Origin: an uncultured Candidatus Saccharibacteria bacterium
GTDB lineage: Bacteria; Patescibacteriota; Minisyncoccia; Minisyncoccales; CAZKCU01
DNA length: 64,000 bases
Assembly: GCA_964431915.1 (NCBI GenBank)
Contig: CAYSLI010000001.1
Location: 47,240 to 111,239 of the forward strand
Reading direction: 5' to 3'
The notes beneath the pieces are model-generated. The model had not been told where the DNA came from and searched no databases. It worked only from the letters and a program-made list of their open reading frames with translations. The translations under genes were made by a program, and so were the position numbers. This document shows positions 55 to 22,136 of the stretch, piece after piece. Each line of letters starts with the position of its first letter. Position 1 is the first letter of the stretch.

Positions 55-1244
55 TTTTTAATATTTCTTTTTACTAAAGAATTAGGATAAATTAAGCAAT
101 TAGAGCCAATTAATGCTCCTGGCATTATAGAAACGTTTATTCCGGTTTTAACATTATCTCCTAAGACGGAGCCGAATTTCTTTCTTTTAGTATCAACCAA
201 TTTCCCATTAGTCATTAATTTAATTGTTTTTTTGTCGAATCGCAGATTGGCAATAATTGTTCCTGTCCCAAGGTTACAATCTTCTCCAATTATTGAATCG
301 CCGATATAACTTAAATGAGAAATTTCAACATTATCTCCTATGATTGAATTTTTTATTTCTACTGCCTGGCCAATTCGGCAATTTGAACCGATGCTAACAG
401 GCCCTCTTATATGACAATTTGGTCCGACCTGACAGCTCTTACCAATATAGATCGGGCCTTCAAGATAACTCCCGCTTTTAATTAAAGTTCCTTTTTTAAT
501 TATTACTTTTCCTTTTAGTTGGGTTTCTTTCTCAATTTTACCTTCCCTAATTCCTTTTTCTCTCTTTATTAAAAGCTCATTAACTTCAAATAAATCCCAG
601 GGATAAGAAAGAGGGTGCCATTTTTTTGCCTTAACAAAAAATAATTTTTCTTTTTTTATAAATTCCCTTAAATAATCAGTGAATTCATACTCACCTCTCA
701 ACGATTTTTTAATCTTGAAATTAAAAATTAGTTTTGGTAAAAAATAAAGCCCGGCATTTACTAAGTTATCTGTAGGCGTTTTTGGTTTTTCAACTATACC
801 TTTAACAAATCTTCCCTTACAAGAAACAATCCCGAAATTAGAAGGATTTTTTACCCGAGCTAACAAAATACAAGGATATTTTTTTAAGCATTTTTTAATA
901 TCCTCTCTATTATATAAATCATCGCCGTTTAAAAGTAAAAATTTATCTCCAAGTAAAGAAAGAGTCTTTTTTGCCGCATTACCCGTTCCTAATTGTTCTT
1001 TCTGAAAAACATATCTTATTTTTAGGTTTTTGTAGCGCTCTCCAATAAGGTTTCTTATTTTCTCGCCTTGATAACCAATGACTAAAACTACCTCTCTTAC
1101 TAAACCATTTAATTGGTCCAAATTATGTTCTAAAATAGTTTTATTTAAAACTTTTAAAAGAGGTTTTGGTCGGGTTTCGGTAAGAGGTTGAAATCTCTTG
1201 CCTTTTCCAGCGGCTAAAATTATTGCCTGTAAGCTTTTTATCAC
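51..1244 (-). CDS. sugar-1-phosphate nucleotidyltransferase with C-terminal left-handed beta-helix acetyltransferase domain (archaeal GlmU-like)
   Basis: N-terminal LAAGKGKRFxPLTxxRPKPLL nucleotidyltransferase signature. C-terminal third is a run of hexapeptide repeats (IGKSCQVGPNCHIRGPVSIGSNCRIG...). Confidence 0.8.
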   Translation of the reverse strand: MIKSLQAIILAAGKGKRFQPLTETRPKPLLKVLNKTILEHNLDQLNGLVREVVLVIGYQGEKIRNLIGERYKNLKIRYVFQKEQLGTGNAAKKTLSLLGDKFLLLNGDDLYNREDIKKCLKKYPCILLARVKNPSNFGIVSCKGRFVKGIVEKPKTPTDNLVNAGLYFLPKLIFNFKIKKSLRGEYEFTDYLREFIKKEKLFFVKAKKWHPLSYPWDLFEVNELLIKREKGIREGKIEKETQLKGKVIIKKGTLIKSGSYLEGPIYIGKSCQVGPNCHIRGPVSIGSNCRIGQAVEIKNSIIGDNVEISHLSYIGDSIIGEDCNLGTGTIIANLRFDKKTIKLMTNGKLVDTKRKKFGSVLGDNVKTGINVSIMPGALIGSNCLIYPNSLVKRNIKK

Positions 1245-1260
1245 AGTAAAGAAGGGTTAA

Positions 1261-1863
1261 TTAATAAGTTTTAGCGAGCTTAAAAGCTTTTTTATTTAAT
1301 TCCAGATATTTTCCCGGAATAATTTTATTAATTGCTTTTAAAATTGAATTTACTTTAATCGGAATTAAATTTTTAAAGGAGGCTAAGCTGATTAGATAAA
1401 TTCCAGCGACTACTTTAGCTCCCAGTTTTTTCTGGCAGATTTCCTCTGCCGGAACTAAAATAATATTTTTGCTAATCTTTTTTAGGCGCTTTAAAATCTC
1501 TTTTTCAGATAAAGATTTTGCTAAAGAAATAGAAATAATCTTTTTGTTAAGTAAAAAGGTGGTTCCCGAATTGGCAAAGGAATAAGCCCTTAAAGTTTCT
1601 TGCATTTCTAATCCTAAGATTAAATCAGCTTTTCCGGCTGAAACCATTGGTGAGTAAATTTTTTTACCGAACCTGATATGAACTTCAACCGACCCTCCTC
1701 TTTGAGAAAGTCCATGGAGTTCAGAACTTTTGAAATCAAATTTTTCAATCAAAGCAGCCTCGGCCAAAACCTGTAAAAGAGTAATTTGACCCTGCCCCCC
1801 TGTTCCTACAATTAACATATTAAATTGGTTTGTTTTCTTGTTCATTTTTTTATCTGGATGCAT
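1261..1863 (-). CDS. iorB: indolepyruvate:ferredoxin oxidoreductase beta subunit (2-oxoacid oxidoreductase gamma-type domain)
   Basis: GTGGQGxxT motif (IVGTGGQGQITLLQVL) and ELHGLSQRGGSV, typical of the POR gamma/IorB domain. Lies immediately downstream of, and overlapping, iorA. Confidence 0.75.
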   Translation of the reverse strand: MHPDKKMNKKTNQFNMLIVGTGGQGQITLLQVLAEAALIEKFDFKSSELHGLSQRGGSVEVHIRFGKKIYSPMVSAGKADLILGLEMQETLRAYSFANSGTTFLLNKKIISISLAKSLSEKEILKRLKKISKNIILVPAEEICQKKLGAKVVAGIYLISLASFKNLIPIKVNSILKAINKIIPGKYLELNKKAFKLAKTY

Positions 1864-3503
1864 GGACGACGAGCTATAATTACTGAAACCTCTTTTTTAT
1901 TTAAAAATTTTTTAACTGTATTAATAAACTCTTTTTGATTGATGGGGTCAATTACTTTTAAATTCTTTACACCGCAGGATTTAACAATATTTTCAATCTT
2001 TATTCCGTCTGGTACAGCTGGCGCCCCCGGATGGGGCTGATGCCCGGTCATAGCCGTAGTTCGATTATCCATTACGATAATTAAAGGATTGGATTTGTTA
2101 AAAACTGTATTAATCAAAGCTGGGATACCGGCGTGAAAAAAAGTTGAGTCGCCAATAAAAGTAATTAATTTTTGACCGCTCGCTTTTTTTATCCCGTGAG
2201 CAATCCCTATTGATGAACCCATACAGGAAAGATAATCTTGGATAAAATGAGGAGGCATCCCAGCTAACATATAACAGCCAATGTCTCCACCAAAAATTAC
2301 CTTTTTGGGGTCAACGGCCTTTTTAACTGCCCCAAAAACTAACCAATAGGGACAGCCAGGACAAAGTTGAGGGAACCTTTTGGGAATTTTCAATTTCCAA
2401 TTTTCAATTTTCAATGAATTTTCAATTTTCAATTTACAATTAGCAAATTTAGCGATGGCTGAGGTAACAATTTCGGGTTTTAGTTCGCCAACTTCGGGAA
2501 TCAGACTTTTTCCAAAAATTTGAAGTTTTGGATTAGCAGTTTTTGCTAATCTTTCTATTTCTCTTTCTAAATATGGCTCTAATTCTTCAACAATCAGAAC
2601 TTTTTTCAAATTTTTAATAAAATTCTTTATTTTCTCTTTTGGTAAAGGATAAAAAAATCCCAGCTTCAAAACCGGTATTTTCAAACTAAGCTCTTTTAGT
2701 GCCTCTATTACATATAAATGGGCAACCCCTGAACTAATTATCCCTATTTTCTGTCTGTCGGTATCAGATACCGACAGACTTATCTCATTTATTCGGTTTT
2801 TTTCAGAAAATTGCTTGACTTTTTCTATTTTTTCTAAAAGTTCTTTTTTCATCTCTAAAACTCTCGGGGGCATGGTAACAAATCTCTTTGGCTCTTTAAT
2901 AAACTCTCCCGTTACGTTGCCGGGTCTCGTAATTTTTCCTAGTTTGACTGGCATTCGCTGGTGAGCAACTCTGGTTGTAGTCCTTATCATTACTGGAATT
3001 TTAAATTTTTCTGAAATTTGAAAAGCTAAATTTGTAAAATCTTTACATTCCTGAGGATCTGAAGGTTCTAAAACAGGAATATGGGCTAAGAAAGCAAAAG
3101 CTCGGCTATTTTCTTCAGATTGAGCTGAACTATGACAAGAAGGGTCATCGGCAACAATAATTACAGTTGGACCCTTTGTGCCAGTATATAAAAAAGGAAG
3201 TAAAGAATCTGAACAGACATTTGTCCCAAAATTTTTCATTGCCACCAAGGTTTTCAAGCCAGAAAAAGAAGCTCCAACTCCTGCTTCCAAAGCTACTTTT
3301 TCATTGGTAGAAAACTCAAAATAACCTTTATATTTTCCTGCTTGAGAAAGTTTAAAAAAGGTATTTCCAATTTCCGAAGCCGGGGTCCCGGGATAAGTAG
3401 AAACAAATTGAATCCCTACTTCCAAAGCTCCTCGAACAATTGCTTCATTGCCCAAAAGAATAATTTTTTTGCCAGGTTTACCCAGCAGGAGAACTTCTTC
3501 CAT
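1842..3503 (-). CDS. iorA: indolepyruvate:ferredoxin oxidoreductase alpha subunit
   Basis: TPP-enzyme layout with GGDIGCY ... MGSSIGIAHG ... GDSTFFHAGIPALIN motifs. Overlaps iorB by 22 nt. Contains a 60-nt heptamer-repeat insert (see repeat 2385-2444). Confidence 0.8.
   Translation of the reverse strand: MEEVLLLGKPGKKIILLGNEAIVRGALEVGIQFVSTYPGTPASEIGNTFFKLSQAGKYKGYFEFSTNEKVALEAGVGASFSGLKTLVAMKNFGTNVCSDSLLPFLYTGTKGPTVIIVADDPSCHSSAQSEENSRAFAFLAHIPVLEPSDPQECKDFTNLAFQISEKFKIPVMIRTTTRVAHQRMPVKLGKITRPGNVTGEFIKEPKRFVTMPPRVLEMKKELLEKIEKVKQFSEKNRINEISLSVSDTDRQKIGIISSGVAHLYVIEALKELSLKIPVLKLGFFYPLPKEKIKNFIKNLKKVLIVEELEPYLEREIERLAKTANPKLQIFGKSLIPEVGELKPEIVTSAIAKFANCKLKIENSLKIENWKLKIPKRFPQLCPGCPYWLVFGAVKKAVDPKKVIFGGDIGCYMLAGMPPHFIQDYLSCMGSSIGIAHGIKKASGQKLITFIGDSTFFHAGIPALINTVFNKSNPLIIVMDNRTTAMTGHQPHPGAPAVPDGIKIENIVKSCGVKNLKVIDPINQKEFINTVKKFLNKKEVSVIIARRPCIQIKK
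2385..2444 (-). repeat. 7-nt-period tandem repeat (AATTTTC x8 with one 4-nt interruption, plus-strand reading) in frame inside iorA
   Basis: aattttc aatttcc aattttc aattttc aatg aattttc aattttc aatttac aattagc = 60 nt = 20 codons. Translated on the minus strand as ...CKLKIENSLKIENWKLKI... Confidence 0.9.
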
Positions 3504-9735: not shown

Positions 9736-10997
9736 ATCTTTAATAATTTTTGGAACTTATTTTTATCCTTAAATGGGCCAATGAGAGCTAAATTTAATTT
9801 TCTTGGTTGAAAAATATCTCTGGCTACTTTTAGAATATCATCTTGACTAACTTTATCAATCATTTTGCACTCTTGAGCGGGAGTTGAAATTTTCCTTTTT
9901 AAAATTTCCTGAGTCCCGAGATAACTCGCCCAGGCATCAGAAGTTTCCAATCCCAGATAAAGATGACCCTTAATATTATCTTTGGCTTTCTGAAGTTCTT
10001 CTCTTGGAACTTTTTTCTCTTTTAAATTTTTATACTCTTTCAAAATGATTTTTATTGCCTCCTCTGTCCTTTTATTGCCAATTCCAGCATGAGTAACAAG
10101 ATATCCTGTATCAGTATAATTTTCAGAAATAGTCTTAATATAATAAGCCATCCCTCTCTTTTCCCTAATTTCAGTAAAAAGCCTGGAGCTCATAACTCCT
10201 CCCAAAAGATTTGCCAAGACAGCGAGGGGGTATCTTTCTGGTTTAAAAATGTTATAAGCTCTGACCCCTAAGGTTAAATGGGTCTGGTCGGTTTCTTTTG
10301 TCCGAAGTAAAATCTGAGGAGATTTTTGTCTTTCAATTACCGGTTTTTTGAGTAAAGATTTGGTCTTTCTGAATTTTTCAAAAAAATTTTTTATTTTAGA
10401 AAAGGCTTCTTTAGTTTCAAAATTTCCAGCCAAGGAAACAACTATATTTTCTGCGCTAAATTGTTTTCTAAAATAATCTAAGATATCTCTTCTGGAAATT
10501 CTTTTTACCGTTTCCTTTTCCCCGGCAATCATCCAACCAGCAGGTTGCTCTCCGTATAAAAGTTTTTCCCAAAGTTCCAAAACATAACTCTGGGGAGTAT
10601 CTAAATACATATTAATTTCTTCTATAATCGCCTTTCTTTCCTTTCCAATCTCTTTTTCTTTAAAAAGAGAATTAAAAATCATATCAGATAAAACATCGGC
10701 TGCTAAGTCAAAATGCTTTGAATCAACCTTTACCCAAAATCCCATAAATTCTTTACCGGTAAAGGCATTATAAATTCCGCCTACCCTATCTAATTCTTTG
10801 GCAATATCTAAAGTCCGGGGGCGTTTTTTTGTTCCCCGAAAAGCCATATGCTCTAAAAAATGAGAAATACCATTTATCTCTTTTTTTTCATATTTCGAAC
10901 CAGTAGCTACTAATATCAAAACAGTTATTGCCTGGGTATTTTGCAAGGGAATAGTAATAATTCTCAAGCCGTTTTTAAGAGTCGTTTTTCTATGCAT
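9732..10997 (-). CDS. M16 family zinc peptidase (pitrilysin-like)
   Basis: Inverted zinc motif HxxEH (GISHFLEHMAFRGT). About 420 aa two-domain layout. Confidence 0.85.
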   Translation of the reverse strand: MHRKTTLKNGLRIITIPLQNTQAITVLILVATGSKYEKKEINGISHFLEHMAFRGTKKRPRTLDIAKELDRVGGIYNAFTGKEFMGFWVKVDSKHFDLAADVLSDMIFNSLFKEKEIGKERKAIIEEINMYLDTPQSYVLELWEKLLYGEQPAGWMIAGEKETVKRISRRDILDYFRKQFSAENIVVSLAGNFETKEAFSKIKNFFEKFRKTKSLLKKPVIERQKSPQILLRTKETDQTHLTLGVRAYNIFKPERYPLAVLANLLGGVMSSRLFTEIREKRGMAYYIKTISENYTDTGYLVTHAGIGNKRTEEAIKIILKEYKNLKEKKVPREELQKAKDNIKGHLYLGLETSDAWASYLGTQEILKRKISTPAQECKMIDKVSQDDILKVARDIFQPRKLNLALIGPFKDKNKFQKLLKI

Positions 10998-12354
10998 TTA
11001 ATTTCTCTTTTAGAATATTTATTAAATCTTTAATTTTTACTCTTTCTTGCTTCATTGTGTCGCGATTGCGAATAGTTAAAGTATCATCCTTTAATGTTTG
11101 GAAATCTACCGTAACCGACACAACAACAGCAATTTCATCACCGCGACGATAACGACGGCCGATTGAACCTAACTCGTCATACTGACAAACAAAATGAGGT
11201 TTTAACAATTGATAAACTTCTTTAGCTTTTTTCACTATTTCTGGTTTATTTCTCACTAAAGGCAAAACAGCAACTTTCATTGGAGCAATCTTTTTATCAA
11301 GTTTCAGCAAAATTTCAGTTTCTTTCGTTGCTTTTGTTGTTTTTGTTCTTCCTCCTTTTATTTCTTGATAGGCATCGCAAATAAGAGCTAAAACTATCCT
11401 TTCCAGTCCTACTGTTGGCTCAACCACATAAGGAATATATCTTTTACCAGAATCCTCATCTAAATAACTTAAATCGCGGCCTGAAAATTTAGAATGTTGT
11501 GATAGGTCAAAATCAGTTCGATTGGCGATACCAGCTAATTCTGACCAACCAAAAGGAAATTTATATTCAATATCAATTGTTCTTTTTGAGTAATGGGATA
11601 GGGCTTCCTTTGGATGTTCATGTCTTCTTAAGTTTTCTTTTTTCAGGCCTAAATCCAGAAAGAACTTTTCCCACTCTACTACCCAAAAATTAAACCATTT
11701 TTCATCTTCTCCTGGTTTAACAAAATACTCAATCTCGGCAATATTAAATTCTCGAGTTCGAAACGTAAAATTACCGGTAGTTATCTCGTTTCGAAAAGAA
11801 CGGCCAATTTGAGCAATTCCAAAAGGAATTTTTAAACGCATCGATTCTTGAACAAGTTTAAAATCGGTAAACATTGACTGGGCGGTTTCTGGTCTTAAAT
11901 AAGTTTGATGGGCTTTATCTTCTACCGGGCCCAGGAAAGTTTTAAACAACAAATTGAAAAGACGAGGTGGAGTAAATTCTTTTCCACCACAATTAGGACA
12001 TTGATTTTTAGTTTTAGCTTTTCCCTCCCCAATAAACCTGCCATCTGCCATATGGTCGGCCCGAAAACGCGAATGACAATTTTTGCATTCAATTAAGGAA
12101 TCGGTGAAATGTTCCAAATGTCCCGAGGCATTCCAAACATTGGGGTGCATCAAAACCGTTCCATCAATCAAAACTACATCATCTCTTTTTTGAACAAATC
12201 TCTTTAGCCATTCTTCTCTGATATTATTTTTTAAAAGAGATCCTAAGGGCCCGTAATCCCACAATGCTTCCACTCCACCGTAAATTTCCGAGGATTGAAA
12301 AACAAATCCCCGCCTTTTACACAAAGATATAATTTTTGACATTAAATCAGTCAT
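10990..12354 (-). CDS. glyQS: glycine--tRNA ligase (alpha2 dimer type)
   Basis: Class II motifs (YLRPETAQ, FRNEITTG..FTFRTREF, GxGxERI as VEPTVGLERI). C-terminal anticodon-binding domain. Confidence 0.95.
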   Translation of the reverse strand: MTDLMSKIISLCKRRGFVFQSSEIYGGVEALWDYGPLGSLLKNNIREEWLKRFVQKRDDVVLIDGTVLMHPNVWNASGHLEHFTDSLIECKNCHSRFRADHMADGRFIGEGKAKTKNQCPNCGGKEFTPPRLFNLLFKTFLGPVEDKAHQTYLRPETAQSMFTDFKLVQESMRLKIPFGIAQIGRSFRNEITTGNFTFRTREFNIAEIEYFVKPGEDEKWFNFWVVEWEKFFLDLGLKKENLRRHEHPKEALSHYSKRTIDIEYKFPFGWSELAGIANRTDFDLSQHSKFSGRDLSYLDEDSGKRYIPYVVEPTVGLERIVLALICDAYQEIKGGRTKTTKATKETEILLKLDKKIAPMKVAVLPLVRNKPEIVKKAKEVYQLLKPHFVCQYDELGSIGRRYRRGDEIAVVVSVTVDFQTLKDDTLTIRNRDTMKQERVKIKDLINILKEKLNA

Positions 12355-12359
12355 GTTTT

Positions 12360-14063
12360 TTATTGAATCTTGCCCATTTCCTCGCTAATAGTCGGGTCAT
12401 CTGGCAAAGAGGCATTAACCGGATCGGCTGTAGCTTCCACCTTTTCTCCTGTCCAGACATCTTCTCCGATTATTCTAACCTGAGAAATAAGTTCAGGAAT
12501 CTCTCTTCTCTGGGCCGAATCAGGAGTTAAAGCAACTTGAAAGGAAATCTCAGGCTCGGGGCCCGAAATTCCTTTTCCTGCTGTTAACTCACCAATTTCC
12601 CAGACAATTTCCCGGCTCACAGAGTCAAAAGAAAACTTAGCTTCTTTTGAAGAAATTTCGCCAGTTAATCTCACCTGAAGAGGTAAATTAGCTTTAACTT
12701 TTAGATTTTTAACATCGTTGTAAAAATTTTTAGCCTGCCAAAAGATAGTATAAGTTGTTGTAGAGCCAACCCGGGGAGGAAGGGGCCCATAATTTTTAAA
12801 AGCTCCCTTGTCAAAATAACCTCTCTGAGAAATAGCCAGCTTTGTGTTAATTTTAGTAATAAATTCTTCTTTAGCCTCACTCAAGCTAATTTTAGTTTTG
12901 ATTTGAGGATTTTTGAGAGAGAAATCGTCTTTCACTCTTACCCAAAATCCAACTTTTCCTTCTTCCATACTGGATAGAAGACGTAATTGGGGAACTGTAA
13001 TATGGTCCCAGATAATTGAGTTTGAACCTTTTTGAAATTGGCCGGCTCCAGCTTGAAGAGTGTCAAAATCTAAAACTCCTCCTTCTAACTGAACTACCAA
13101 AAATAAATTTTCCAAACCTTCCTCTCCGGTATTTTTAAAGAAGACTTCGTAATACAGATAATCCCCGGGGCAAGCTGAATATTGAGGAGAATTATTAATT
13201 TGATAGGAGAGAAAAATCGAAGGTCTGGTAATTTCTATCCCCTTAGTTGTCTCTTTTAATAAAACAAATTCTCCTTCCTGCCAGATGCCTAAATTTGCCC
13301 GAAAGATTTTTGACTCTTGAACCTCTCCCCTTAGAATGCCGGAAACTTCAATTCTTCCTCCCCCAGCCTTATTTAAAAGTGGAATCTCCCATTCTGTTTT
13401 TCCTAAGGACTTTGGCTGACTCTCAAAAAACTCAAAGCCAGCAGGATATTCAATCCTTACTCTTAAATTAGAAATAGGATAATCTATATTTGAAAAATAA
13501 TTTAACCTAAAGAGAGTTTTTCTGCCAGGTTCAACTTTCGAAGGAAAATCAAATTCAAAAGTAAGAGGAACACTTTTAATTAAAGTAGTGAAAGTGGTGG
13601 CTGACTCATAGCGAGTTTTTAGATTTTTTGGTTTATAACTTAACCAAGCCTTGGCAATCTTAGCTTCATTTTCTCTACCTAATAATCTGGCTTTAAAATG
13701 GAAGGTTCTCTCTTGGCCAGGGTAGATATCCTCGAGTTCTTTTTCTTGTCTTGGAGATACTTCTTCTTGAGGCAGGGCTTCCTGATTTTCAGACCGGATT
13801 TCTTCTTCGACAACTATTGAATTTTTAGGATATTCAAAAATAAGTTTTGGCTCTTCTAACCTGATATTGCCATTATTTTTATATTTCACTATATATTCAA
13901 TTTCTTGAGCCATTTCTACTTCTTCTGGTCCCAAAATTTCCACTCTCAAAATCTCTTTGGAATAAATATTTCTTTGATAATACCAAAAACCGGCTACCCC
14001 TAAGATAATCGTTAAAATGATAATAACTTTTATTAATTTCCCCTTCATGTACCGAGCTTCCAT
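12360..14063 (-). CDS. membrane-anchored protein with repeated beta-sandwich (DUF11/CARDB-like) modules, function unknown; true start may be ATG at 14048
   Basis: N-terminal TM helix (LIKVIIILTIILGVAGFWYY) followed by repeated ~100-aa segments. The first 5 codons (MEARY) are contributed by repeat element copy A, so the start is uncertain. Confidence 0.6.
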   Translation of the reverse strand: MEARYMKGKLIKVIIILTIILGVAGFWYYQRNIYSKEILRVEILGPEEVEMAQEIEYIVKYKNNGNIRLEEPKLIFEYPKNSIVVEEEIRSENQEALPQEEVSPRQEKELEDIYPGQERTFHFKARLLGRENEAKIAKAWLSYKPKNLKTRYESATTFTTLIKSVPLTFEFDFPSKVEPGRKTLFRLNYFSNIDYPISNLRVRIEYPAGFEFFESQPKSLGKTEWEIPLLNKAGGGRIEVSGILRGEVQESKIFRANLGIWQEGEFVLLKETTKGIEITRPSIFLSYQINNSPQYSACPGDYLYYEVFFKNTGEEGLENLFLVVQLEGGVLDFDTLQAGAGQFQKGSNSIIWDHITVPQLRLLSSMEEGKVGFWVRVKDDFSLKNPQIKTKISLSEAKEEFITKINTKLAISQRGYFDKGAFKNYGPLPPRVGSTTTYTIFWQAKNFYNDVKNLKVKANLPLQVRLTGEISSKEAKFSFDSVSREIVWEIGELTAGKGISGPEPEISFQVALTPDSAQRREIPELISQVRIIGEDVWTGEKVEATADPVNASLPDDPTISEEMGKIQ

Positions 14064-14870: not shown

Positions 14871-15260
14871 TCATTTCCCCAGAATTCCCTTTGTCAACCT
14901 TTTTGCTTTCCCTTTATCTTCATAGGATAAATCTTTAAATTTCCCCCATTTCCCCAAATTTAATTGTTTTTCTGCTTCCTCCACGTCTTTTTTCTTTACA
15001 GAACTGCCGTGGCCGAAAAGCTTTTCCCCTATCCTAGTCGTGTCTTTTTTTGCCAAACTGGTTCTTCTATAAAGCTCGGGATTTCCTAATTGATGCATAA
15101 AATTCCCCCGATTCATATAAGACTTTCCTCCGAACATTGAACTATCTTTCTCTTCTTTTTTTGGTGATGGAGTTGAGGTTTTTTCTGGTCTTCTTTTTAT
15201 TCCTCCCCCACCAAAAATTTTTTTAATATCAAAAATTGCCATATTTTTAAATTTTTTCAA
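14871..15260 (-). CDS. hypothetical basic, low-complexity protein (alternative start ATG 15242)
   Basis: 129-aa ORF between ileS and recO, Lys/Gly-rich, no recognisable motif. The start overlaps the ileS stop by 14 nt unless Met7 is used. Confidence 0.4.
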   Translation of the reverse strand: MKKFKNMAIFDIKKIFGGGGIKRRPEKTSTPSPKKEEKDSSMFGGKSYMNRGNFMHQLGNPELYRRTSLAKKDTTRIGEKLFGHGSSVKKKDVEEAEKQLNLGKWGKFKDLSYEDKGKAKRLTKGILGK

Positions 15261-18126
15261 TTGCTAACCATAATTTTGTTTGACCGACCTTTAAATTTTT
15301 TTCAATGTCAAAGATTTTCTTTAATTTTTTACCAAAAAGAAAATCTCTGGCTTTGGTCTCTTCTAAAATGTCTTTTTTATTTTTTTCTAAAACTTTCTTC
15401 AATTTCTCTTGGCACTCACAATAAATAATAATTTTGTCTTTGGGAGTAAGTTTAGCTTTTTTCCGCAGTTGCTGAACTTGTCGGATAAATTCTCGAACCT
15501 GCCCTTCCTCTCTTAACTCTTTGGTAATTTTTATATCCAACTCTATTTCCTCTTTAATCTTCGGGTCAAAAACTATTTCTTTAACATTAACTTCTTCTTT
15601 AATTAGCTGTAATAGTTCTTTATTATTTTTGATTTTTGATTTTTGATTTTTGATTTTGAGCAAAGCGAGAGGTTGACGTACTTTAATCCCGGCCTTTACT
15701 CTTTCAGCCAACGCGAAAGCGACTACTTCTCGACCCTGCTCCATTTTTTCTTCTAAGTCTTTGTTAATTAATCTTTTGTTTGGCTTAGGATAATCAGCCA
15801 GATGGACTGATTCTTTGAGGCCGCTTAATTTTTGGTAAATTTCTTCAGCAATAAAGGGTGTAAAAGGAGCTAAAAGCTTACTTAAATTCAAAAGCAGATA
15901 ATAAAGGGTCTGACGGGCTTCATCTTTTTCTTTTTTCGCTTCTGGTTTTTGGAACCTTCTCCGGGAACGACGGATGTACCAATTAGATAAATCCTCAACA
16001 AAATCTTCAAATAATCTCGCAGCCGAAACAATATCATAATTATCCAGATTTTTAATTACCCGAAGATTTAAATTTTCTAAGCGAGAGAGAATCCACTTGT
16101 CAAGTAAATTTTGGGATTTAAAATTTTCTTTTGGTTTAAACTGTTTGTCAGTATAAGTGGAAAAGAACACTAAAACATTTCGCAAGGTATCAAAAAACTT
16201 TCTATATATAGTTTGAACGTCTTTAAAATCAAATCTTTTGGGATCAGCTACTTGGTTGATTGTATAAAAATAGAATCTGGCAACATCGACTCCAAATCTG
16301 TCAATTACATCTTTGGGCCAAACAATATTACCTTTTGACTTTGACATTTTTTTGCCTTTGGCATCTAAAACAATGCCATTAACCACAACATTTTTATAAG
16401 GAGTACCAAAATTTAAAAGGGTTGAAACAGCCAATAGGGTATAAAACCAACCTCTTGTTTGGTCTAATCCTTCACAAATAAAATCTGCTGGGAAAGACAA
16501 ACTCTTATCGATTCTTTCTTTGTTCTCAAAAGGATAATGCCATTGGGCAAAAGGCATACTTCCCGAATCAAACCAACAATCAATTACTTCAGGAACTCGT
16601 CTCATTTGACCACCACATTTTTTGCACTTGAAAGTAATTTTGTCAATAAAGGGTTTGTGTAAATCAGTAATTTTTTTACCGCTTAATTTTGTTAATTCCT
16701 CAATTGATCCAATCACTTCAATATTATTACAAGATTTTTGATTTTTGCTGTTTTGGCATTGCCAAATCGGGAGAGGTGTACCCCAGTAACGCTCACGCGA
16801 TAAGTTCCAATCTTTAATTTCTCTGAGCCATTCACCGAATCTCCCTTCTTTCAAATAATTGGGGACCCAGTTTATTTCTTGATTGTTTTTGAGCAGCTCT
16901 TTTTTAAGAGCAGTCATTTTAATAAACCAAGAAGTTTTAGCGTAATAAAGTAAGGGGGTACCACAACGCCAACAAAAAGGATATTCATGTTCGTATAATT
17001 CTTCTTTGAAAAAAAGGTTTCTTTTTCTTAAATCTTCAATAATTGGAGGGTCAGCTTCTTTAACAAATAGCCCTGCCCATTTTTTAACTTCTGTTTTAAA
17101 ACACCCACTCTCATCAACAGTCATTAGAATTGGTAAATCATTTTTCTTTGCTGCTGCCATATCTTCTTCTCCAAAAGCTGGGGCAACATGGACTAAACCT
17201 GTTCCCTCCCCTAATGAAACAAAATCGCCAGGAATTATATGGTAAGCTTTTTTATCAAGCCTTGCAGAAGGAAACAAAGGTTGATACTCCATTCCAAGAA
17301 GTTCTTTTCCTTTAAACTCTTGAACAATTTTATCCCCTACCCCACAAGCTTTCATTCGTTCTTTTGCCAAAATCAAATATTCATCATCGACTTTTGCCCT
17401 AACATAAGTAAAATCAGGATTTACGGCAATTGCCACATTCCCTGGTAAAGTCCAAATTGTTGTTGTCCAAATTAATAAATAAGTATTTTTGAACTTTAAA
17501 TTTTTAACTTTCAACTTTACATATAACGCTGGTTCTTTAATTTTCTTGTATCCTTGAGCTACTTCGTGGCTAGACAGACTCGTCCCACATCTCGGACAAT
17601 AAGGCACAACTTTGTAATCTTGATATAATAATCCTTTCTTCCAAATTTTCTTTAAAGCCCACCATAAGCTCTCAATATAATCATTACTACAGGTAATATA
17701 AGCATTTTTTAAATCAAGCCAGAAACCAATTCTTTTAGTAAATTCTTCCCATTCTTTTTTATAGGTAAAAACATTTCTTTTACACTCTTCAATAAATTTC
17801 TCAATGCCAAGTTGCTCGATTTCTTTTTTAGTTTTAATTTTAAGTTTCTCTTCAGCCGCTATCTCAGTGGGTAAACCATGAGTGTCCCAACCGGCCTTTC
17901 TCTCAACAAAAAAACCCTGCATAGTTTTATAACGCAAAATTATATCTTTGAAAGCCCGAGCCAAAAGATGATGGATACCAGGCAAGCCATTAGCGTAGGG
18001 TGGTCCTTCAAAAAAAACAAATTTTGGACCTTTTTTGGTCTTCTCTAAACTCTTCTTAAAAATTCTATTCTTTTCCCAGAATTTGAGAATCATCTCTTCT
18101 AATTTTCGAGGTTCATATTTTTCCAT
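15247..18126 (-). CDS. ileS: isoleucine--tRNA ligase (type 2, archaeal/eukaryote-like)
   Basis: 959 aa. PPYANGLPGIHH (HIGH-type) and KMSKSKGN motifs, CP1 editing domain, Zn-ribbon CxxC pairs. Confidence 0.97.
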   Translation of the reverse strand: MEKYEPRKLEEMILKFWEKNRIFKKSLEKTKKGPKFVFFEGPPYANGLPGIHHLLARAFKDIILRYKTMQGFFVERKAGWDTHGLPTEIAAEEKLKIKTKKEIEQLGIEKFIEECKRNVFTYKKEWEEFTKRIGFWLDLKNAYITCSNDYIESLWWALKKIWKKGLLYQDYKVVPYCPRCGTSLSSHEVAQGYKKIKEPALYVKLKVKNLKFKNTYLLIWTTTIWTLPGNVAIAVNPDFTYVRAKVDDEYLILAKERMKACGVGDKIVQEFKGKELLGMEYQPLFPSARLDKKAYHIIPGDFVSLGEGTGLVHVAPAFGEEDMAAAKKNDLPILMTVDESGCFKTEVKKWAGLFVKEADPPIIEDLRKRNLFFKEELYEHEYPFCWRCGTPLLYYAKTSWFIKMTALKKELLKNNQEINWVPNYLKEGRFGEWLREIKDWNLSRERYWGTPLPIWQCQNSKNQKSCNNIEVIGSIEELTKLSGKKITDLHKPFIDKITFKCKKCGGQMRRVPEVIDCWFDSGSMPFAQWHYPFENKERIDKSLSFPADFICEGLDQTRGWFYTLLAVSTLLNFGTPYKNVVVNGIVLDAKGKKMSKSKGNIVWPKDVIDRFGVDVARFYFYTINQVADPKRFDFKDVQTIYRKFFDTLRNVLVFFSTYTDKQFKPKENFKSQNLLDKWILSRLENLNLRVIKNLDNYDIVSAARLFEDFVEDLSNWYIRRSRRRFQKPEAKKEKDEARQTLYYLLLNLSKLLAPFTPFIAEEIYQKLSGLKESVHLADYPKPNKRLINKDLEEKMEQGREVVAFALAERVKAGIKVRQPLALLKIKNQKSKIKNNKELLQLIKEEVNVKEIVFDPKIKEEIELDIKITKELREEGQVREFIRQVQQLRKKAKLTPKDKIIIYCECQEKLKKVLEKNKKDILEETKARDFLFGKKLKKIFDIEKNLKVGQTKLWLAIEKI
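15626..15659 (-). repeat. heptanucleotide tandem repeat (TTTTTGA x4 + TTTTGA) in frame inside ileS
   Basis: tttttga x4 read directly. Translated as ...KIKNQKSKIKNNK... in the C-terminal region. Confidence 0.95.
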
Positions 18127-19096
18127 TTTTTCTCTTATTTCTTGAATCTAAATTTTTTAATTCCTGGCAAATTTGTTTTGGCCATTTTTCTCCAAAATTT
18201 GTATCTAAAAATTTAAAATTAAAATGATTTTTGTAAAAATCTAGATAATCTTTAGTGGTAAAAGACCAAGAGTTTTTAAATTCATATGGCTGAGAAATAA
18301 TAACAGGTATTAAAAATTTATCTTTGAAAAGCGTAGGAAGCATTTTAGCAATATCAACTAGAGTCTTTTGAATCCTGTGCTGCTTACTTCTTGTTTTATA
18401 TTTAGCCTTGTGCGAAAAAATGGCAATGATAAATTCTGTCCCCTTGGGGCCTATCAATCTGAGATCGTATTCCCTTCCTTTAGGAACAAAATTAACTTTA
18501 AAACCTTGCTTTAAAGCAAACTTTAATAATTCCTTCGCATAAACCTCAATGTAGCATAAAAAGTCTTCCGTCCTTAGGTTAGTATCCTTCCATTCATTAA
18601 TATCTAGTTTTACTTTTACGGGAATTGTAACACACTTTTTATTTAAAGCCAGTGACTGAAGTTCTCTTGATAAAACTTTTGGGATGCTTTTATTTATAAC
18701 TATTTGAATATATGAATGAGTGTTATTACTTGAATATGGATAACATTGGAGCGTTAAATTTTTTTTCTTGATTCTAAAAAGTCTAACCGTCCAACCTGAA
18801 TTTTTTAAAAAAGATAGCTTAACTTGTCTCTTGCCAGAGGGTAATTTACTTGGTTTTGTCCCGAAAGCCATGCTGCTAATTCGCAAGAATATTCTCTTTG
18901 ATTTAGAAAAATATCTACTAATTTTTTTCTCAGTCTTCCATTTATATTCTCTTATCCGAGTACTCTGCTCGTAAGTTATTGAAGCAGGAATTTCTATAAC
19001 CATATTACCCCTTAAGCTTCTCTCTGAATCCTTAATCTTGTTTTCTTGCCAGAATTTTAGGATTTTTTTCTCAATTTTAGGAAAATCTATGGACAT
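18113..19096 (-). CDS. hypothetical protein: duplicated IleRS N-terminal peptide fused to an unrelated ~300-aa body with a possible PD-(D/E)xK/Hjc-like nuclease-like C-terminal half
   Basis: Starts MSIDFPKIEKKILKFWQENKI; compare the ileS start MEKYEPRKLEEMILKFWEKNRI. The C-terminal segment EVYAKELLKFALKQGFKVNFVPKGREYDLRLIGPKGTEFIIAIFSHK has nuclease-like E...D...K spacing. Overlaps both neighbours (14 nt and 10 nt). Confidence 0.5.
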   Translation of the reverse strand: MSIDFPKIEKKILKFWQENKIKDSERSLRGNMVIEIPASITYEQSTRIREYKWKTEKKISRYFSKSKRIFLRISSMAFGTKPSKLPSGKRQVKLSFLKNSGWTVRLFRIKKKNLTLQCYPYSSNNTHSYIQIVINKSIPKVLSRELQSLALNKKCVTIPVKVKLDINEWKDTNLRTEDFLCYIEVYAKELLKFALKQGFKVNFVPKGREYDLRLIGPKGTEFIIAIFSHKAKYKTRSKQHRIQKTLVDIAKMLPTLFKDKFLIPVIISQPYEFKNSWSFTTKDYLDFYKNHFNFKFLDTNFGEKWPKQICQELKNLDSRNKRKNGKI

Positions 19097-19650
19097 AGTT
19101 TTCTCAGCTCGCCAACTTCTATATGCTTTTGATCCAAAAGTTGTTCATTGTTTAAGCTCTTTACCGCTCCTTCCAAAAGCCATAAAGGGCCTCCATGACT
19201 AACAATTAAGATTTTTTTGTTTTTGTATTTTTTGTCAATCTCTTTTAAAAAATTTACCATTCTTTTTTGGCAGTCTTGCCGGCTTTCTCCGCCCGGAGGT
19301 CTTTTTATAAATCTTAATAGAGAAACTCCTGGAAAATCTTGATAAAATTCTTCTCTTAATCTTCCCTGATAAATTCCTACATTAACATCTCTTAATCTTT
19401 TATCAAAATTTATTTTTAATCCGAGCTCTTTAGCCACAATTTTGGCGGTCTGGCGCGTCCGAAAAAAATCTGAGGCAAAAATTAAGTCGATTTTTTCTTT
19501 TTTAAGTTTTTTCGCAATAGACTTTATCTGATTTTCTCCCCTTTTTGTTAATCTCACGACCGGGTTTTCTGGCCAGGGATAAGTAAAATCTTTCTTTTTT
19601 GTCTGATAAATTGTCTGGCCATGCCGCAAAATGAAATAAATATTTTGCAT
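19087..19650 (-). CDS. histidine phosphatase family protein (phosphoglycerate-mutase-like)
   Basis: RHG motif at the N-terminus (FILRHGQT) and distal SHGG (VSHGGPLW). Confidence 0.8.
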   Translation of the reverse strand: MQNIYFILRHGQTIYQTKKKDFTYPWPENPVVRLTKRGENQIKSIAKKLKKEKIDLIFASDFFRTRQTAKIVAKELGLKINFDKRLRDVNVGIYQGRLREEFYQDFPGVSLLRFIKRPPGGESRQDCQKRMVNFLKEIDKKYKNKKILIVSHGGPLWLLEGAVKSLNNEQLLDQKHIEVGELRKLCP

Positions 19651-19652
19651 AA

Positions 19653-21272
19653 TTACATTTTTTCTGGAGCGGAAATGCCCATTAGATATAAAACGTTTTT
19701 TAAAACAGTTTTAGTGGCTGAGATTAAAGCCAATCTTGCCTCAGTTAATTCTTTGTTATCTGATAAAACTTGACAATCTCTATAAAATTGGTGAAATTGA
19801 TGGGCAAGTTCAAATGCATACTGAGGTAATCTCTGAACCTGATAATCCTTTGTCGTATCCTCAACAATTTCTGGGAGTCTAATAAGTTGTTTAATTAAGT
19901 TTAACTCATTATCGTGATTTAATAATTGAAATTTTGCATTTTGCATTTTGGGTTTTGGATTTGATTTGATATTTGACATTTGGATTTTGGATTTTACAAG
20001 AATGCTATGTATTCTGGCGTGAGCATATTGAATATAATAAACCGGATTTTTTTCTGACTGTTTTTTAGCTAGAGTGAGGTCGAAATTTAAATGAGTATTA
20101 GCTGATTTTTGGAGAAAAAAGAATTTAGCAACATCAACTCCTACCTCCCGGAGTAATTCATCCATAGTAACAAGAGTTCCCCGTCTTTTTGAAATTTTCA
20201 GCTTTTTCCCTCTTTCAAGTATAGTTACAAATTGAAGCAATAAAATATCAAGTTTGCCTTTATAACCTAAAGCTTCCACTCCTGCCTGAAGACCTGCTAC
20301 ATCACCGGCATGGTCAGCTCCCCAAATATCTATTACTTTGTCAAATTTCTTCTTCTCAAATTTATAGTGGTGATAGGCAAGGTCACCTGCCAGATAAGTT
20401 TTATCACCATCCGCTTTGACTACTACCCTGTCTCTTTTGTCGTCATATTTGGAGCTTCTGAACCAAACTGCTTTTTCTTTTTGATAAATTAAATTTTTCT
20501 GCTCCAAAATCTTCAAAACTTTGTCTACTTGGCCGCTCTCGTGAAGGGTTTTTTCTGAAAACCACTCGTCATAATTAATCCCCATTCTGTCGGTTGTTTT
20601 TTTAATCATCTCATCAATAATAATTTTGCCAGCTCTCTCACCTGCCTTATGGGGCTCTTTTTCTTTGATTCTTTTGGCAAGTTCATCAATATATTTACCT
20701 TTGTATTTTGCCTCTTTGTCTTCCAAAATAGAATGTCCCAGAGCTAAAATTTGCATCCCGTAATCATTAATATAGTAAGCTTTTTCTACTTTAAATCCCA
20801 CTTTTTCCAGAACGTTTCCCAAAACGTCACCAAAAGGACCGCCTCGAGCATTGCCGACAGTTAGAGGACCTGTTGGATTTGCCGAAATAAATTCTACCTG
20901 GACTTTCTTTCCTTTGCCAATATTTAACTCACCAAACCTCTCTCCCTTCTTTAAAATTTCTCCAATTCTCTGTTGTAAATATTCTTTTGAAAGAAAAAAA
21001 TTAATAAACCCTGGTTTGACTACCTCAACTTTGTCAAAAAAATCAGATTTGAGACCTAAGATTTGAGATTTGAGATTTTCTGCTGTTTCCAATGGGTTTT
21101 TATTTATTTCCCGCCCGATTACCATCGCCGCGTTTGTGGCATAATCTCCGTGGGGCTTTTGTTCTGAATATTCTATCTGAATTTCAGGGATATCAATTTC
21201 TGGCAAAATTCCTTTTTTTTGGAGTAATTTTGTTGATTTTTCTATTAATTTTTTAATTTCTTCTCTTGCCAT
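19653..21272 (-). CDS. argS: arginine--tRNA ligase
   Basis: FISANPTGPLTVGNARG (HIGH-region equivalent). Add-1 N-terminal domain. C-terminal DALR anticodon-binding domain ending ...GISAPEKM. Confidence 0.95.
   Translation of the reverse strand: MAREEIKKLIEKSTKLLQKKGILPEIDIPEIQIEYSEQKPHGDYATNAAMVIGREINKNPLETAENLKSQILGLKSDFFDKVEVVKPGFINFFLSKEYLQQRIGEILKKGERFGELNIGKGKKVQVEFISANPTGPLTVGNARGGPFGDVLGNVLEKVGFKVEKAYYINDYGMQILALGHSILEDKEAKYKGKYIDELAKRIKEKEPHKAGERAGKIIIDEMIKKTTDRMGINYDEWFSEKTLHESGQVDKVLKILEQKNLIYQKEKAVWFRSSKYDDKRDRVVVKADGDKTYLAGDLAYHHYKFEKKKFDKVIDIWGADHAGDVAGLQAGVEALGYKGKLDILLLQFVTILERGKKLKISKRRGTLVTMDELLREVGVDVAKFFFLQKSANTHLNFDLTLAKKQSEKNPVYYIQYAHARIHSILVKSKIQMSNIKSNPKPKMQNAKFQLLNHDNELNLIKQLIRLPEIVEDTTKDYQVQRLPQYAFELAHQFHQFYRDCQVLSDNKELTEARLALISATKTVLKNVLYLMGISAPEKM
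19932..19998 (-). repeat. ~7-nt-period repeat block (ATTTTGC/ATTTTGG/ATTTGAT units, ~10 units) in frame inside argS
   Basis: attttgc attttgc attttgg gttttgg atttg atttgat atttgac atttgg attttgg attttac. Translated as ...KSKIQMSNIKSNPKPKMQNAKFQ... Confidence 0.9.
21047..21080 (-). repeat. heptanucleotide repeat (ATTTGAG units) in frame inside argS N-terminal domain
   Basis: atttgag acctaag atttgag atttgag attttc. Translated as ...ENLKSQILGLKSD... Confidence 0.85.
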
Positions 21273-21310: not shown

Positions 21311-21760
21311 ATGAAAATTTTAGCTAAAAACAAAAAGGCTTATTTTAATTATGAAATCCTGGAAAATTTTGAGGCAGGAATTTCTTTGATTGGCCAGGAA
21401 GTGAAATCAATAAAAACAAGGGGAGTGAGTTTGGCAGGTTCATATGTGGTTTTGAAAGACGAGGAAGTTTTTTGGATTGGGCTTAATATTCCTCCTTATC
21501 AGCCAAAAAATGCGCCAAAAGATTATAATCCAGCGAGAACACGAAAACTTCTTCTTAAAAAATCAGAAATTAAATATTTAATTGGTAAATCAAAGCAAAA
21601 AGGCTTGACTTTAATACCCCTTAGGTTATATACTAAAAATGGGAAAATAAAGTTAGAGTTCGGAACAGCAAAAGGAAAGAAAAAAGCTGATAAAAGAGAA
21701 TTAATTAAAAAAAGGGAAATAGAAAGACAAATTAAAAGAGAATTAAAAATGCGGGGATGA
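21311..21760 (+). CDS. smpB: SsrA-binding protein SmpB
   Basis: 149 aa. N-terminus NKKAYFNYEILExxEAGIxLxGxEVKS is the canonical SmpB signature. Followed directly by tmRNA. Confidence 0.95.
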   Translation: MKILAKNKKAYFNYEILENFEAGISLIGQEVKSIKTRGVSLAGSYVVLKDEEVFWIGLNIPPYQPKNAPKDYNPARTRKLLLKKSEIKYLIGKSKQKGLTLIPLRLYTKNGKIKLEFGTAKGKKKADKRELIKKREIERQIKRELKMRG

Positions 21761-22102
21761 CAGGGTTCGATGAGGAATTAACTAAAATAAGCAGGTTGAG
21801 TATTCTCAAATCTCATTAAACTTTGAGAAAAACAAAAATAAGTGCCAACTTATTTTCTAAACCTGCTTTAGCTTATGCTTAAAGCAGCATCCTCTTTGCT
21901 GATTCTCGATAGGTAAAGCTGGGTGTAATATTCATCGAGATAGACAAGTTTCGTTGTTTCGCGAACTTGTCGAAAAAAAAGAGACAAATAGTGGTACTAG
22001 GTTTTGTCTGTTTGATCCAGTATTCCAAAATTAAAACAGAACAAACTTGTAGAATTATTTTAGAAAAATTCCTCAGATGGGACTTCGATGTCCCCATCTC
22101 CA
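21753..22102 (+). ncRNA. ssrA: transfer-messenger RNA (tmRNA, ssrA), ~350 nt; tag ORF 21844-21879 ANLFSKPALAYA, stop TAA 21880-21882
   Basis: The 5' GGGGAUGACAGGGUUCGAUG pairs with the 3' ...GGGACUUCGAUGUCCCCAUCUCCA. This forms a tRNA-Ala-like acceptor stem with a G3:U pair and a T-arm. The internal resume frame GCC AAC ... GCU UAU GCU UAA ends in LAYA, like canonical tags. Adjacent to smpB. Confidence 0.85.
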
Positions 22103-22136
22103 CAACACCTCCCCAAATAAAAAGAGAAAGGAAAAT

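Follow-up and report, generated by a model that had tools for sequence, protein, structure and literature searches.

The ileS locus and its displaced start

On the minus strand of the window (the whole stretch of DNA that was analysed, 64,000 nucleotides (nt) of contig CAYSLI010000001.1), the gene order is argS, a His_Phos_1 phosphatase gene, an open reading frame (ORF), ileS and recO. An earlier reading made from the letters alone (the sequence-only reading) had taken this nuclease-like ORF for a gene cassette of ~0.9 kb inserted within the first ~25 codons of ileS. The overlaps that it gave were reproduced on re-check: the ORF shares 14 nt with ileS and 10 nt with the phosphatase gene. We show here that a foreign segment of ~980 nt (~19033-18055), consisting of a short leader, a gene for 296 amino acids (aa) and 24 ileS codons, lies in the bacterium's own ileS (Table 1). 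From locus comparisons and structural modelling, we consider it rather probable that the ORF is a mobile, homing-endonuclease-like gene that is specific for the 5' end of ileS, brings a replacement for that end, and encodes a predicted nuclease activity.

Residues 1-22 of the ORF scored 40.8 bits against a profile of 153 N-termini of isoleucyl-tRNA synthetase (IleRS); control translations from the reverse strand of these upstream regions scored no higher than 1.3 bits. The N-termini of the ORF and of the adjacent ileS are identical at 10 of 21 residues and at 60% of nucleotides (one codon gap allowed), and their Smith-Waterman score of 62 was reached by 0 of 5000 shuffles, which gave 23 +/- 5 and a maximum of 52. 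At this level of DNA identity, and with an indel, the duplicated ileS 5' ends were not reported by a repeat finder. No synthetase similarity was found beyond about residue 31 of the ORF. These results bear out the claims of the sequence-only reading that the ORF opens with a diverged copy of the IleRS N-terminus and has no synthetase similarity after it.

The sequence-only reading also proposed that the cassette provides a replacement ileS 5' end and that the old ileS start now heads the ORF. The ~119 closest homologues of the window IleRS, all of the Patescibacteria type (EGPPYANGLPGIHH), open with M..(D/N)(F/L)P.IE.KILKFW..NKIFEKSLEKTKKGP. The extension that heads the ORF, MSIDFPKIEKKILKFWQENKI, conforms to the native N-terminus pattern of the window's IleRS clade (M..DFPKIEKKILKFWQENKIFEKS) and also resembles the ileS starts of four related loci that lack the ORF (L060-L063). 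By contrast, the present ileS start, MEKYEPRKLEEMILKFWEKNRIFKK, does not conform to the Patescibacteria pattern. Starts of this MEKYEP type occur in 0 of the ~119 homologues from the Candidate Phyla Radiation (CPR). The MEKYEP/Y.P type is present in ileS downstream of ORF family members in DPANN archaea, and it is native to an archaeal contig without the ORF (L064; MEKYEPLKQEPEILKFWKDNRIY). The proposal thus held: the extension is of native type, and codons 1-24 of the present ileS are of archaeal type.

Comparison with the two closest ORF-bearing loci, both from CPR bacteria (L001 and L002), located the junction. The window DNA is ~87% identical to L001 and L002 from the 3' end of the phosphatase gene across the ORF to ileS codon 24, where identity collapses. 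The ORF proteins are 89% (L001) and 83-84% (L002) identical to that of the window; the IleRS proteins encoded downstream are only 41% and 44% identical. From codon ~22-25 on (the ATTTTT..AGAAGAGTTTAGAGAAGACC stretch), the window DNA instead matches the ORF-less locus L062 almost base for base. The N-terminus types, the break in identity at codon 24 and the match to L062 together make it essentially certain that the window ileS is a chimera in which codons 1-24 are foreign and of archaeal type, codons 25-959 are native, and native codons 1-21 have been stranded upstream of the ORF as a relic. The foreign codons join native codon 25 in frame, and the IleRS stays intact. The cassette of relic, ORF and MEKYEP codons occurs in two native ileS types among related CPR genomes. 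Replacement of the bacterial ileS by a whole archaeal ORF-plus-ileS operon was considered and rejected, because the IleRS type found downstream of the ORF in L001 and L002, DGPITANN, is native to the ORF-less CPR relative L063, which implies that only the ORF and the 24 codons are foreign. This idea was also dropped because the DGPITANN type was found in other bacteria.

Table 1. Features at the ileS locus, in positions of the window
Feature	Position	Strand	Basis or remark
argS	19653-21272	minus	upstream of phosphatase gene
His_Phos_1 phosphatase gene (left flank)	19087-19650	minus	Pfam His_Phos_1, 2.4e-36
ORF	18113-19096	minus	327 aa, starts MSIDFPKIEKKILKFWQENKIKDS
Displaced native ileS codons 1-21, MSIDFPKIEKKILKFWQENKI	19034-19096	minus	IleRS N-terminus profile, 40.8 bits
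Junction/leader KDSERSLRGN (probable)	19004-19033	minus	three-way DNA alignment of window, L001 and L002; empty-site comparison
Family core gene, M32-I327, 296 aa + stop	18113-19003	minus	34 homologues aligning from M32
Beta-rich N-terminal domain of core gene (predicted)	~18605-19003	minus	AlphaFold2 model
Restriction-endonuclease-like C-terminal domain of core gene (predicted)	~18116-18604	minus	AlphaFold2 model, Foldseek
ileS	15247-18126	minus	959 aa, starts MEKYEPRKLEEMILKFWEKNRIFKKS
Foreign ileS codons 1-24, MEKYEPRKLEEMILKFWEKNRIFK	18055-18126	minus	~87% nt identity to L001/L002
Native ileS body, codons 25-959, EGPPYANGLPGIHH type	15247-18054	minus	KMSKS present; 60-76% identity to Patescibacteria IleRS

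The 31-residue extension is carried only by the window protein and its L001 counterpart (P0002). In L002, the corresponding stretch is a separate mini-ORF in another frame, MNFPEIEKKILKFWQKNKIFEKT followed by a stop codon. Since the extension is confined to this CPR trio and the homologues start at M32, it is not part of the family. The junction at 19004-19033 probably consists of decayed native codons ~22-29, judging from the alignment, with an 8-nt indel relative to L002. Within it, a Shine-Dalgarno (SD)-like AAGGGG lies 4 nt upstream of M32, the start codon that is conserved in the family and is probably the true start of the ORF. The original ileS start codon in the relic still overlaps the phosphatase stop. 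Between the relics of the window (19034-19096) and L001 (79-141), there are ~5 synonymous and 2 non-synonymous changes, which hints that the relic is still constrained or has been refreshed by conversion, although these numbers are too small to judge.

The genes smpB (21311-21760), infC, rpmI and rplT and a transfer-messenger RNA (tmRNA) gene also lie near the locus and identify the source organism as a bacterium. The nearest named relatives of the window IleRS are from Nealsonbacteria and Paceibacterota (Patescibacteria/CPR). The full-length tmRNA (21753-22105, plus strand; Rfam RF00023, 110 bits) directly follows smpB and overlaps an ORF call of 195 aa that includes infC and looks spurious. 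On the 3' side of ileS, a Lys/Gly-rich ORF of 129 aa with a TTG start (14871-15260, minus strand) overlaps the ileS stop by 14 nt, and ORFs of ~100 aa without a Pfam match hold the same position in L061 and L062.

The ORF family, empty sites and recurrent relics

Exhaustive HMMER screening of 1.84 billion cluster representatives returned 25 relatives of the ORF, and a search of 5.8 billion sequences returned 34. Nearly all are 277-300 aa long and start at the M32 of the window protein (M.I.IPASIT...). This family N-terminus is unlike that of IleRS, which argues against convergence of a native N-terminus on that of IleRS, an outcome that the sequence-only reading had named as fatal to its claim. 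Sequence and profile searches of Pfam, NCBIfam, PHROGs, PADLOC and PDB gave no match to the ORF or its family, and no LAGLIDADG or GIY-YIG endonuclease family was found by Pfam in the window protein or the 34 members. All 13 GTDB species matches are DPANN archaea (Woese-, Pace-, Nano- and Aenigmatarchaeota). One archaeal member (P0015) is labelled "phage pi2 protein 07" by the Joint Genome Institute (JGI), a label for which a PHROGs search gave no support.

We then considered the 38 distinct loci with enough sequence, drawn from genome and metagenome scans and direct look-ups. In every one, ileS lies immediately downstream of the ORF on the same strand, with a median of 1 nt (typically -14 to +24 nt) between the ORF stop and the ileS start; the neighbourhood check suggested by the sequence-only reading thus found homologues always adjoining ileS. 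The downstream IleRS proteins fall into six subtypes by the motif before HIGH: DGPITANN, DGPPYAN, xGPPYTSG, DGPPFATG, EGPPTAN and the CPR type EGPPYANG. No methyltransferase or partner gene was found near the ORF in the inspected loci. Among other genes seen at individual loci, a reverse-transcriptase (RVT_1) gene (765-1877, plus strand) precedes the ORF by ~450 nt in the DPANN locus L003, and an MCM gene with a LAGLIDADG intein (10836-12861, plus strand) lies just downstream of ileS in L007.

Sites that lack the ORF, whose absence among relatives would have told against an insertion, were found in both bacteria and archaea. In three CPR loci (L060, L061 and L062; IleRS 76, 69 and 70% identical to that of the window), the phosphatase gene is followed directly by ileS, in the synteny rplT-rpmI-infC-smpB / argS-phosphatase-ileS. 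A fourth (L063) has argS-phosphatase-ileS-recO, again without the ORF; its ileS is of the DGPITANN type, starts in native style with MDLDFPKIEEKILKFWKKNQIFKK, and encodes an IleRS 79-87% identical to those of L001 and L002. Both native ileS types that host the cassette therefore have ORF-less counterparts, and L064 is an archaeal ileS without the ORF. The ORF is thus polymorphic for presence at one fixed site in a conserved host gene, and these syntenic relatives, together with the homologues that start at M32, support a cassette of the size and position first proposed. Three further features of these loci and proteins were noted. The EGPPYANG and DGPITANN IleRS types (~41-44% identical) share the argS-phosphatase-ileS-recO locus in ORF-less CPR relatives. 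An ORF with a weak Pfam match to LAGLIDADG_1 adjoins smpB in L060 (309-794, minus strand) and is a possible homing endonuclease gene. Several Patescibacteria IleRS proteins of ~1150 aa (P0131, P0136, P0146, P0154 and P0160) contain an apparently C-terminal His_Phos_1 domain, of the same family as the phosphatase encoded upstream of the window ileS.

The mismatch between ORF and IleRS identity seen for the window, L001 and L002 is found elsewhere in the family. L018 is 60-65% identical to its clade in the ORF and 35-38% in IleRS, and the corresponding values for L013, L015, L019 and L057 are 56-63% and 32-39%. A neighbour-joining tree of the ORF contains at least four switches of IleRS type inside ORF clades and places the CPR trio next to Aenigmatarchaeota copies. 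Element and host-gene phylogenies are thus incongruent, though many DPANN pairs are concordant.

Displaced ileS starts also recur. In the DPANN locus L052, an IleRS N-terminus relic upstream of the ORF, EQEKEILKFWKSKKIYDKSRKKNK followed by a stop codon, scored 35 bits on the profile. Weaker relics, read by eye, precede the ORF in L012 (MTLYNPHKTEKEI), L040 (MIDIKKIEEEMLNS*KENKTYK, with a stop at the W codon), L019 (SNYDPKAIMDNVFWYF) and L018, where the relic (MYDFKKVESEAKKIF) has an N-terminal type unlike that of the present ileS start (MYNPQEIEEEILKFW). Fresh relics extend to about codon 28-30 in both CPR (L002) and DPANN (L052) genomes, which, with the end of the foreign piece of the window at codon 24, points to one insertion site.

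Intact copies of the ORF are under purifying selection: the ratio of non-synonymous to synonymous substitution (dN/dS) of the core is 0.14-0.16 among the CPR trio, over dS of 0.35-0.47, and 0.07-0.20 in DPANN pairs. Two Woesearchaeota copies from different assemblies, L024 (1825-2683) and L057 (~165-1026), have a common frameshift after about residue 67, and L024 also carries an in-frame stop (EKEAK*LLDK); both look like decaying copies. Intact, decaying and absent states, those of an invasion-degeneration-loss cycle, therefore all exist. Moreover, the 24 foreign ileS codons travel with the ORF, as in co-conversion. From these observations, we consider ileS-specific mobility of the ORF family very likely.

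Predicted fold of the ORF protein

An AlphaFold2 (AF2) model of the full core, built from a 34-sequence alignment (pLDDT 89.5, pTM 0.82), shows a beta-rich domain at the N-terminus (~1-134) and an alpha/beta domain at the C-terminus; the latter gave a pLDDT of 83.5 when modelled alone. In Foldseek searches with the full core, Hef/XPF/Mus81 nuclease domains ranked first in PDB (1j24, probability 0.98), and the matches in BFVD were viral proteins, one with an ERCC4 domain. The C-terminal domain alone again matched Hef first (1j24; probability 1.00, E 4.6e-3, template-modelling (TM) score 0.47/0.54), followed by XisH, EndoMS, MUS81, N.BspD6I, XPF, BstEII, BamHI, BsoBI, EcoO109I and T7 endonuclease I. 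For the beta-rich domain, all matches were of low probability and were to phage tail and baseplate proteins. By its position in the model, helix 1 carries the family-invariant residue E184 and strand 2 carries D211; K232, R236 and K238 are also invariant, with K232 and K238 placed after strand 3. The GDxnERKx3D motif was not recognisable in the C-terminal domain.

These results partly back a restriction-endonuclease-like C-terminal domain of the Hef/XPF/Mus81 kind, at the level of predicted fold only. The nuclease-like C-terminal half of the sequence-only reading is backed in part by fold matches (Foldseek probabilities 0.98-1.00), but E values are just 5e-3 to 2e-2 and no canonical (D/E)xK motif could be assigned.

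Proposed mode of spread and comparison with known systems

Homing driven by a self-encoded nuclease is the most likely mechanism for this mobility, though unproven. The ORF protein would act on ORF-less ileS alleles as a site-specific DNA nuclease, with its cut at around codons ~20-30, within the conserved ILKFW..NKIF.K stretch, and the element, bracketed by two ileS 5' copies, would spread by double-strand-break-repair homing. Of the two ends made by such a cut, the left would find its homology in the relic of the donor and the right in the donor's ileS body, and repair from the ORF-bearing copy would bring in the ORF together with the donor's first ~24 codons by co-conversion. The recipient's own ileS start would become the new relic and go on giving the start context. 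The inferred right-hand crossover falls exactly where foreign and native sequence last agree (A.AATTTT), as would be expected with poor downstream homology. Relics would decay unless renewed by further homing, which would lead to their graded preservation. The CPR lineage would have received the element from a DPANN archaeon.

Several points weigh against homing. DNA cleavage and its site are predictions, and the fold matches are modest (no Foldseek E value below 1e-3; TM scores 0.45-0.54). The canonical (D/E)xK triad was not recognised in the C-terminal domain, where beta-strand 3 reads IAISSHxAK and holds no acidic residue. ORF and IleRS identities co-vary across most DPANN pairs (Spearman 0.37; many at 60-70% versus 65-75%), which implies that much of the inheritance is vertical, and dN/dS of ~0.15 would equally fit a gene useful to the host. 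The window and L001 have the same relic, including the derived 8-nt indel, so that the CPR copies go back to a single insertion; ordinary recombination within the conserved 5' stretch could account for the different ileS bodies of these two loci. ORF-less CPR relatives also differ in IleRS type (L060-L062 compared to L063), which implies that ileS has been swapped in place within the group. Finally, the homing model leaves unexplained why the restored ileS 5' end would not be cut by the element's own predicted nuclease.

A reading that several of these points would suit, and that we consider unlikely though deserving of weight, is that the ORF is an ordinary host accessory gene, co-operonic with ileS in some DPANN archaea and acting, for example, on tRNA-Ile, on ileS mRNA or with IleRS, which entered the CPR lineage once by illegitimate or short-homology recombination and does not mobilise itself. 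The strict co-orientation and translational coupling with ileS are as expected for such a gene, as are the purifying selection, including that within the CPR lineage, the roughly parallel divergence of ORF and IleRS in most DPANN pairs, the single insertion common to the three CPR loci, and the lack of a proven nuclease motif. By contrast, it does not account well for the very patchy occurrence of the ORF (13 GTDB species; 25 of 1.84 billion cluster representatives), for close relatives that lack it or for pseudogenised copies. Displaced ileS starts that recur in independent lineages, with a relic in L018 of another N-terminal type than the current start, and the placement of the ORF before six IleRS subtypes with at least four switches, also oppose it, and the predicted fold is that of DNA nucleases.

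We regard as improbable that an orphan restriction-type or defence nuclease, or a toxin, landed beside ileS and that its IleRS-like N-terminus reflects a start codon called too far upstream. The restriction enzymes among the fold matches (BamHI, BsoBI, BstEII, EcoO109I and N.BspD6I) and the probable true start at M32, with its SD-like AAGGGG, are consistent with this explanation, but a defence gene would not be expected to sit always at the ileS start or to come with a chimeric ileS, no methyltransferase or partner gene lies near the ORF in any locus, and PADLOC gave no match. Least credible, and refuted by the results given here, is that the N-terminal likeness arose by chance or convergence, or that the element is an intron, an intein, or an island borne by an integrase or transposase: the low DNA identity of the two 5' copies, missed by the repeat finder, would fit, but the profile score, the shuffles and the lineage-specific native signatures of the relic speak against it. 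A group I or II intron was rejected, as no Rfam intron reached the gathering score in 17800-19400, and an intein was rejected because the ORF ends at a stop codon of its own and is out of frame with the ileS that it overlaps, rather than lying in frame inside IleRS. An integrase-type element that regenerates its target was also rejected: this is a single gene with no recombinase domain and no exact flanking repeats, and neither integrase or transposase domains nor terminal inverted repeats were found at the element. Of the two analogies offered by the sequence-only reading, that with free-standing homing endonucleases fits, and that with integrative elements fails because no integrase is present.

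Homing elements in essential genes normally survive by hiding in introns or inteins. We put at about even odds the fuller proposal that the ORF founds a new family of free-standing homing nucleases with a PD-(D/E)xK-like catalytic domain, a beta-rich recognition domain and a replacement ileS 5' end, in which the displaced start serves as promoter, start and homology arm. On this proposal, the universal ILKFW..NKIF target would have allowed movement among at least six IleRS subtypes and from DPANN to CPR genomes. A literature search found no paper linking homing endonucleases with ileS. Should sequence-specific nuclease activity be shown for the protein, it would offer a new scaffold whose natural target lies in a universally conserved coding motif.

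The recognised families of homing endonucleases include PD-(D/E)xK (PMC6083498). The best superpositions of the predicted C-terminal domain were on the XPF/Mus81/Hef (ERCC4) domain and on type II restriction endonucleases; unlike in those proteins, it comes with an extra, unmatched beta-rich N-terminal domain, and there is no sequence similarity to them. Free-standing homing endonucleases of T4-like phages (mobE and the Seg proteins) carry out "intronless homing" by way of double-strand-break repair (PMC2790892, PMC2988022). Like these, the ORF is a stand-alone gene without an intron or intein at a conserved gene, shows flank co-conversion and varies in presence among relatives. The phage genes belong to the HNH or GIY-YIG families, sit between genes or split them, and bring no replacement gene end and leave no duplicated relic; their mobility was shown by experiment, whereas that of the ORF is read from sequences. 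In mitochondria of Tremella fuciformis, an N-terminal duplication arose via intron mobility, according to a citation in PMC8393795. As cited there, flank gene conversion in homing gives N-terminal duplication and partial foreign replacement, as at the ORF locus, although that case is intron-borne and organellar and the ORF locus has no intron.

The closest parallel in layout is with the mobile endonuclease ORFs (mORFs) of fungal mitochondria, in which a foreign C-terminal piece enters atp6, atp9, cox2 or nad3 and the native C-terminus is displaced downstream (PMC3630166). Such hybrids were first seen in atp6 of Allomyces macrogynus, where the endonuclease was shown to drive mobility, and in Glomus they affect all four genes (PMC3630166). 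In both systems, an ORF sits in the end of a conserved gene, a foreign gene end continues in frame, a relic of the native end lies on the far side of the ORF, empty sites occur in relatives, and the foreign piece points to horizontal transfer. The duplicated terminus that marks mORFs is present here as native codons 1-21 and foreign codons 1-24. Unlike mORFs, which occupy 3' ends in organelle genomes and encode LAGLIDADG or GIY-YIG proteins, the ORF family has no Pfam match and a PD-(D/E)xK-like predicted fold, and it lies at the 5' end of an aminoacyl-tRNA synthetase gene in DPANN and CPR chromosomes; endonuclease activity was shown for the Allomyces mORF and is predicted for the ORF family.

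DPANN archaea and CPR bacteria are ultra-small episymbionts with common habitats, and the window gives a probable, junction-resolved case of DNA exchange between them. It also indicates a route to mosaic IleRS genes, a point to weigh where IleRS serves as a phylogenetic marker. Seen beside the mORFs, the ORF would extend the spare-gene-end strategy to prokaryotic chromosomes, to a 5' gene end, to an aminoacyl-tRNA synthetase and to a new protein family. Because the insertion is at the 5' end, the promoter and start have stayed with the relic that now heads the ORF, so that, compared to its fungal counterparts, the element would capture the expression signals of its host gene.

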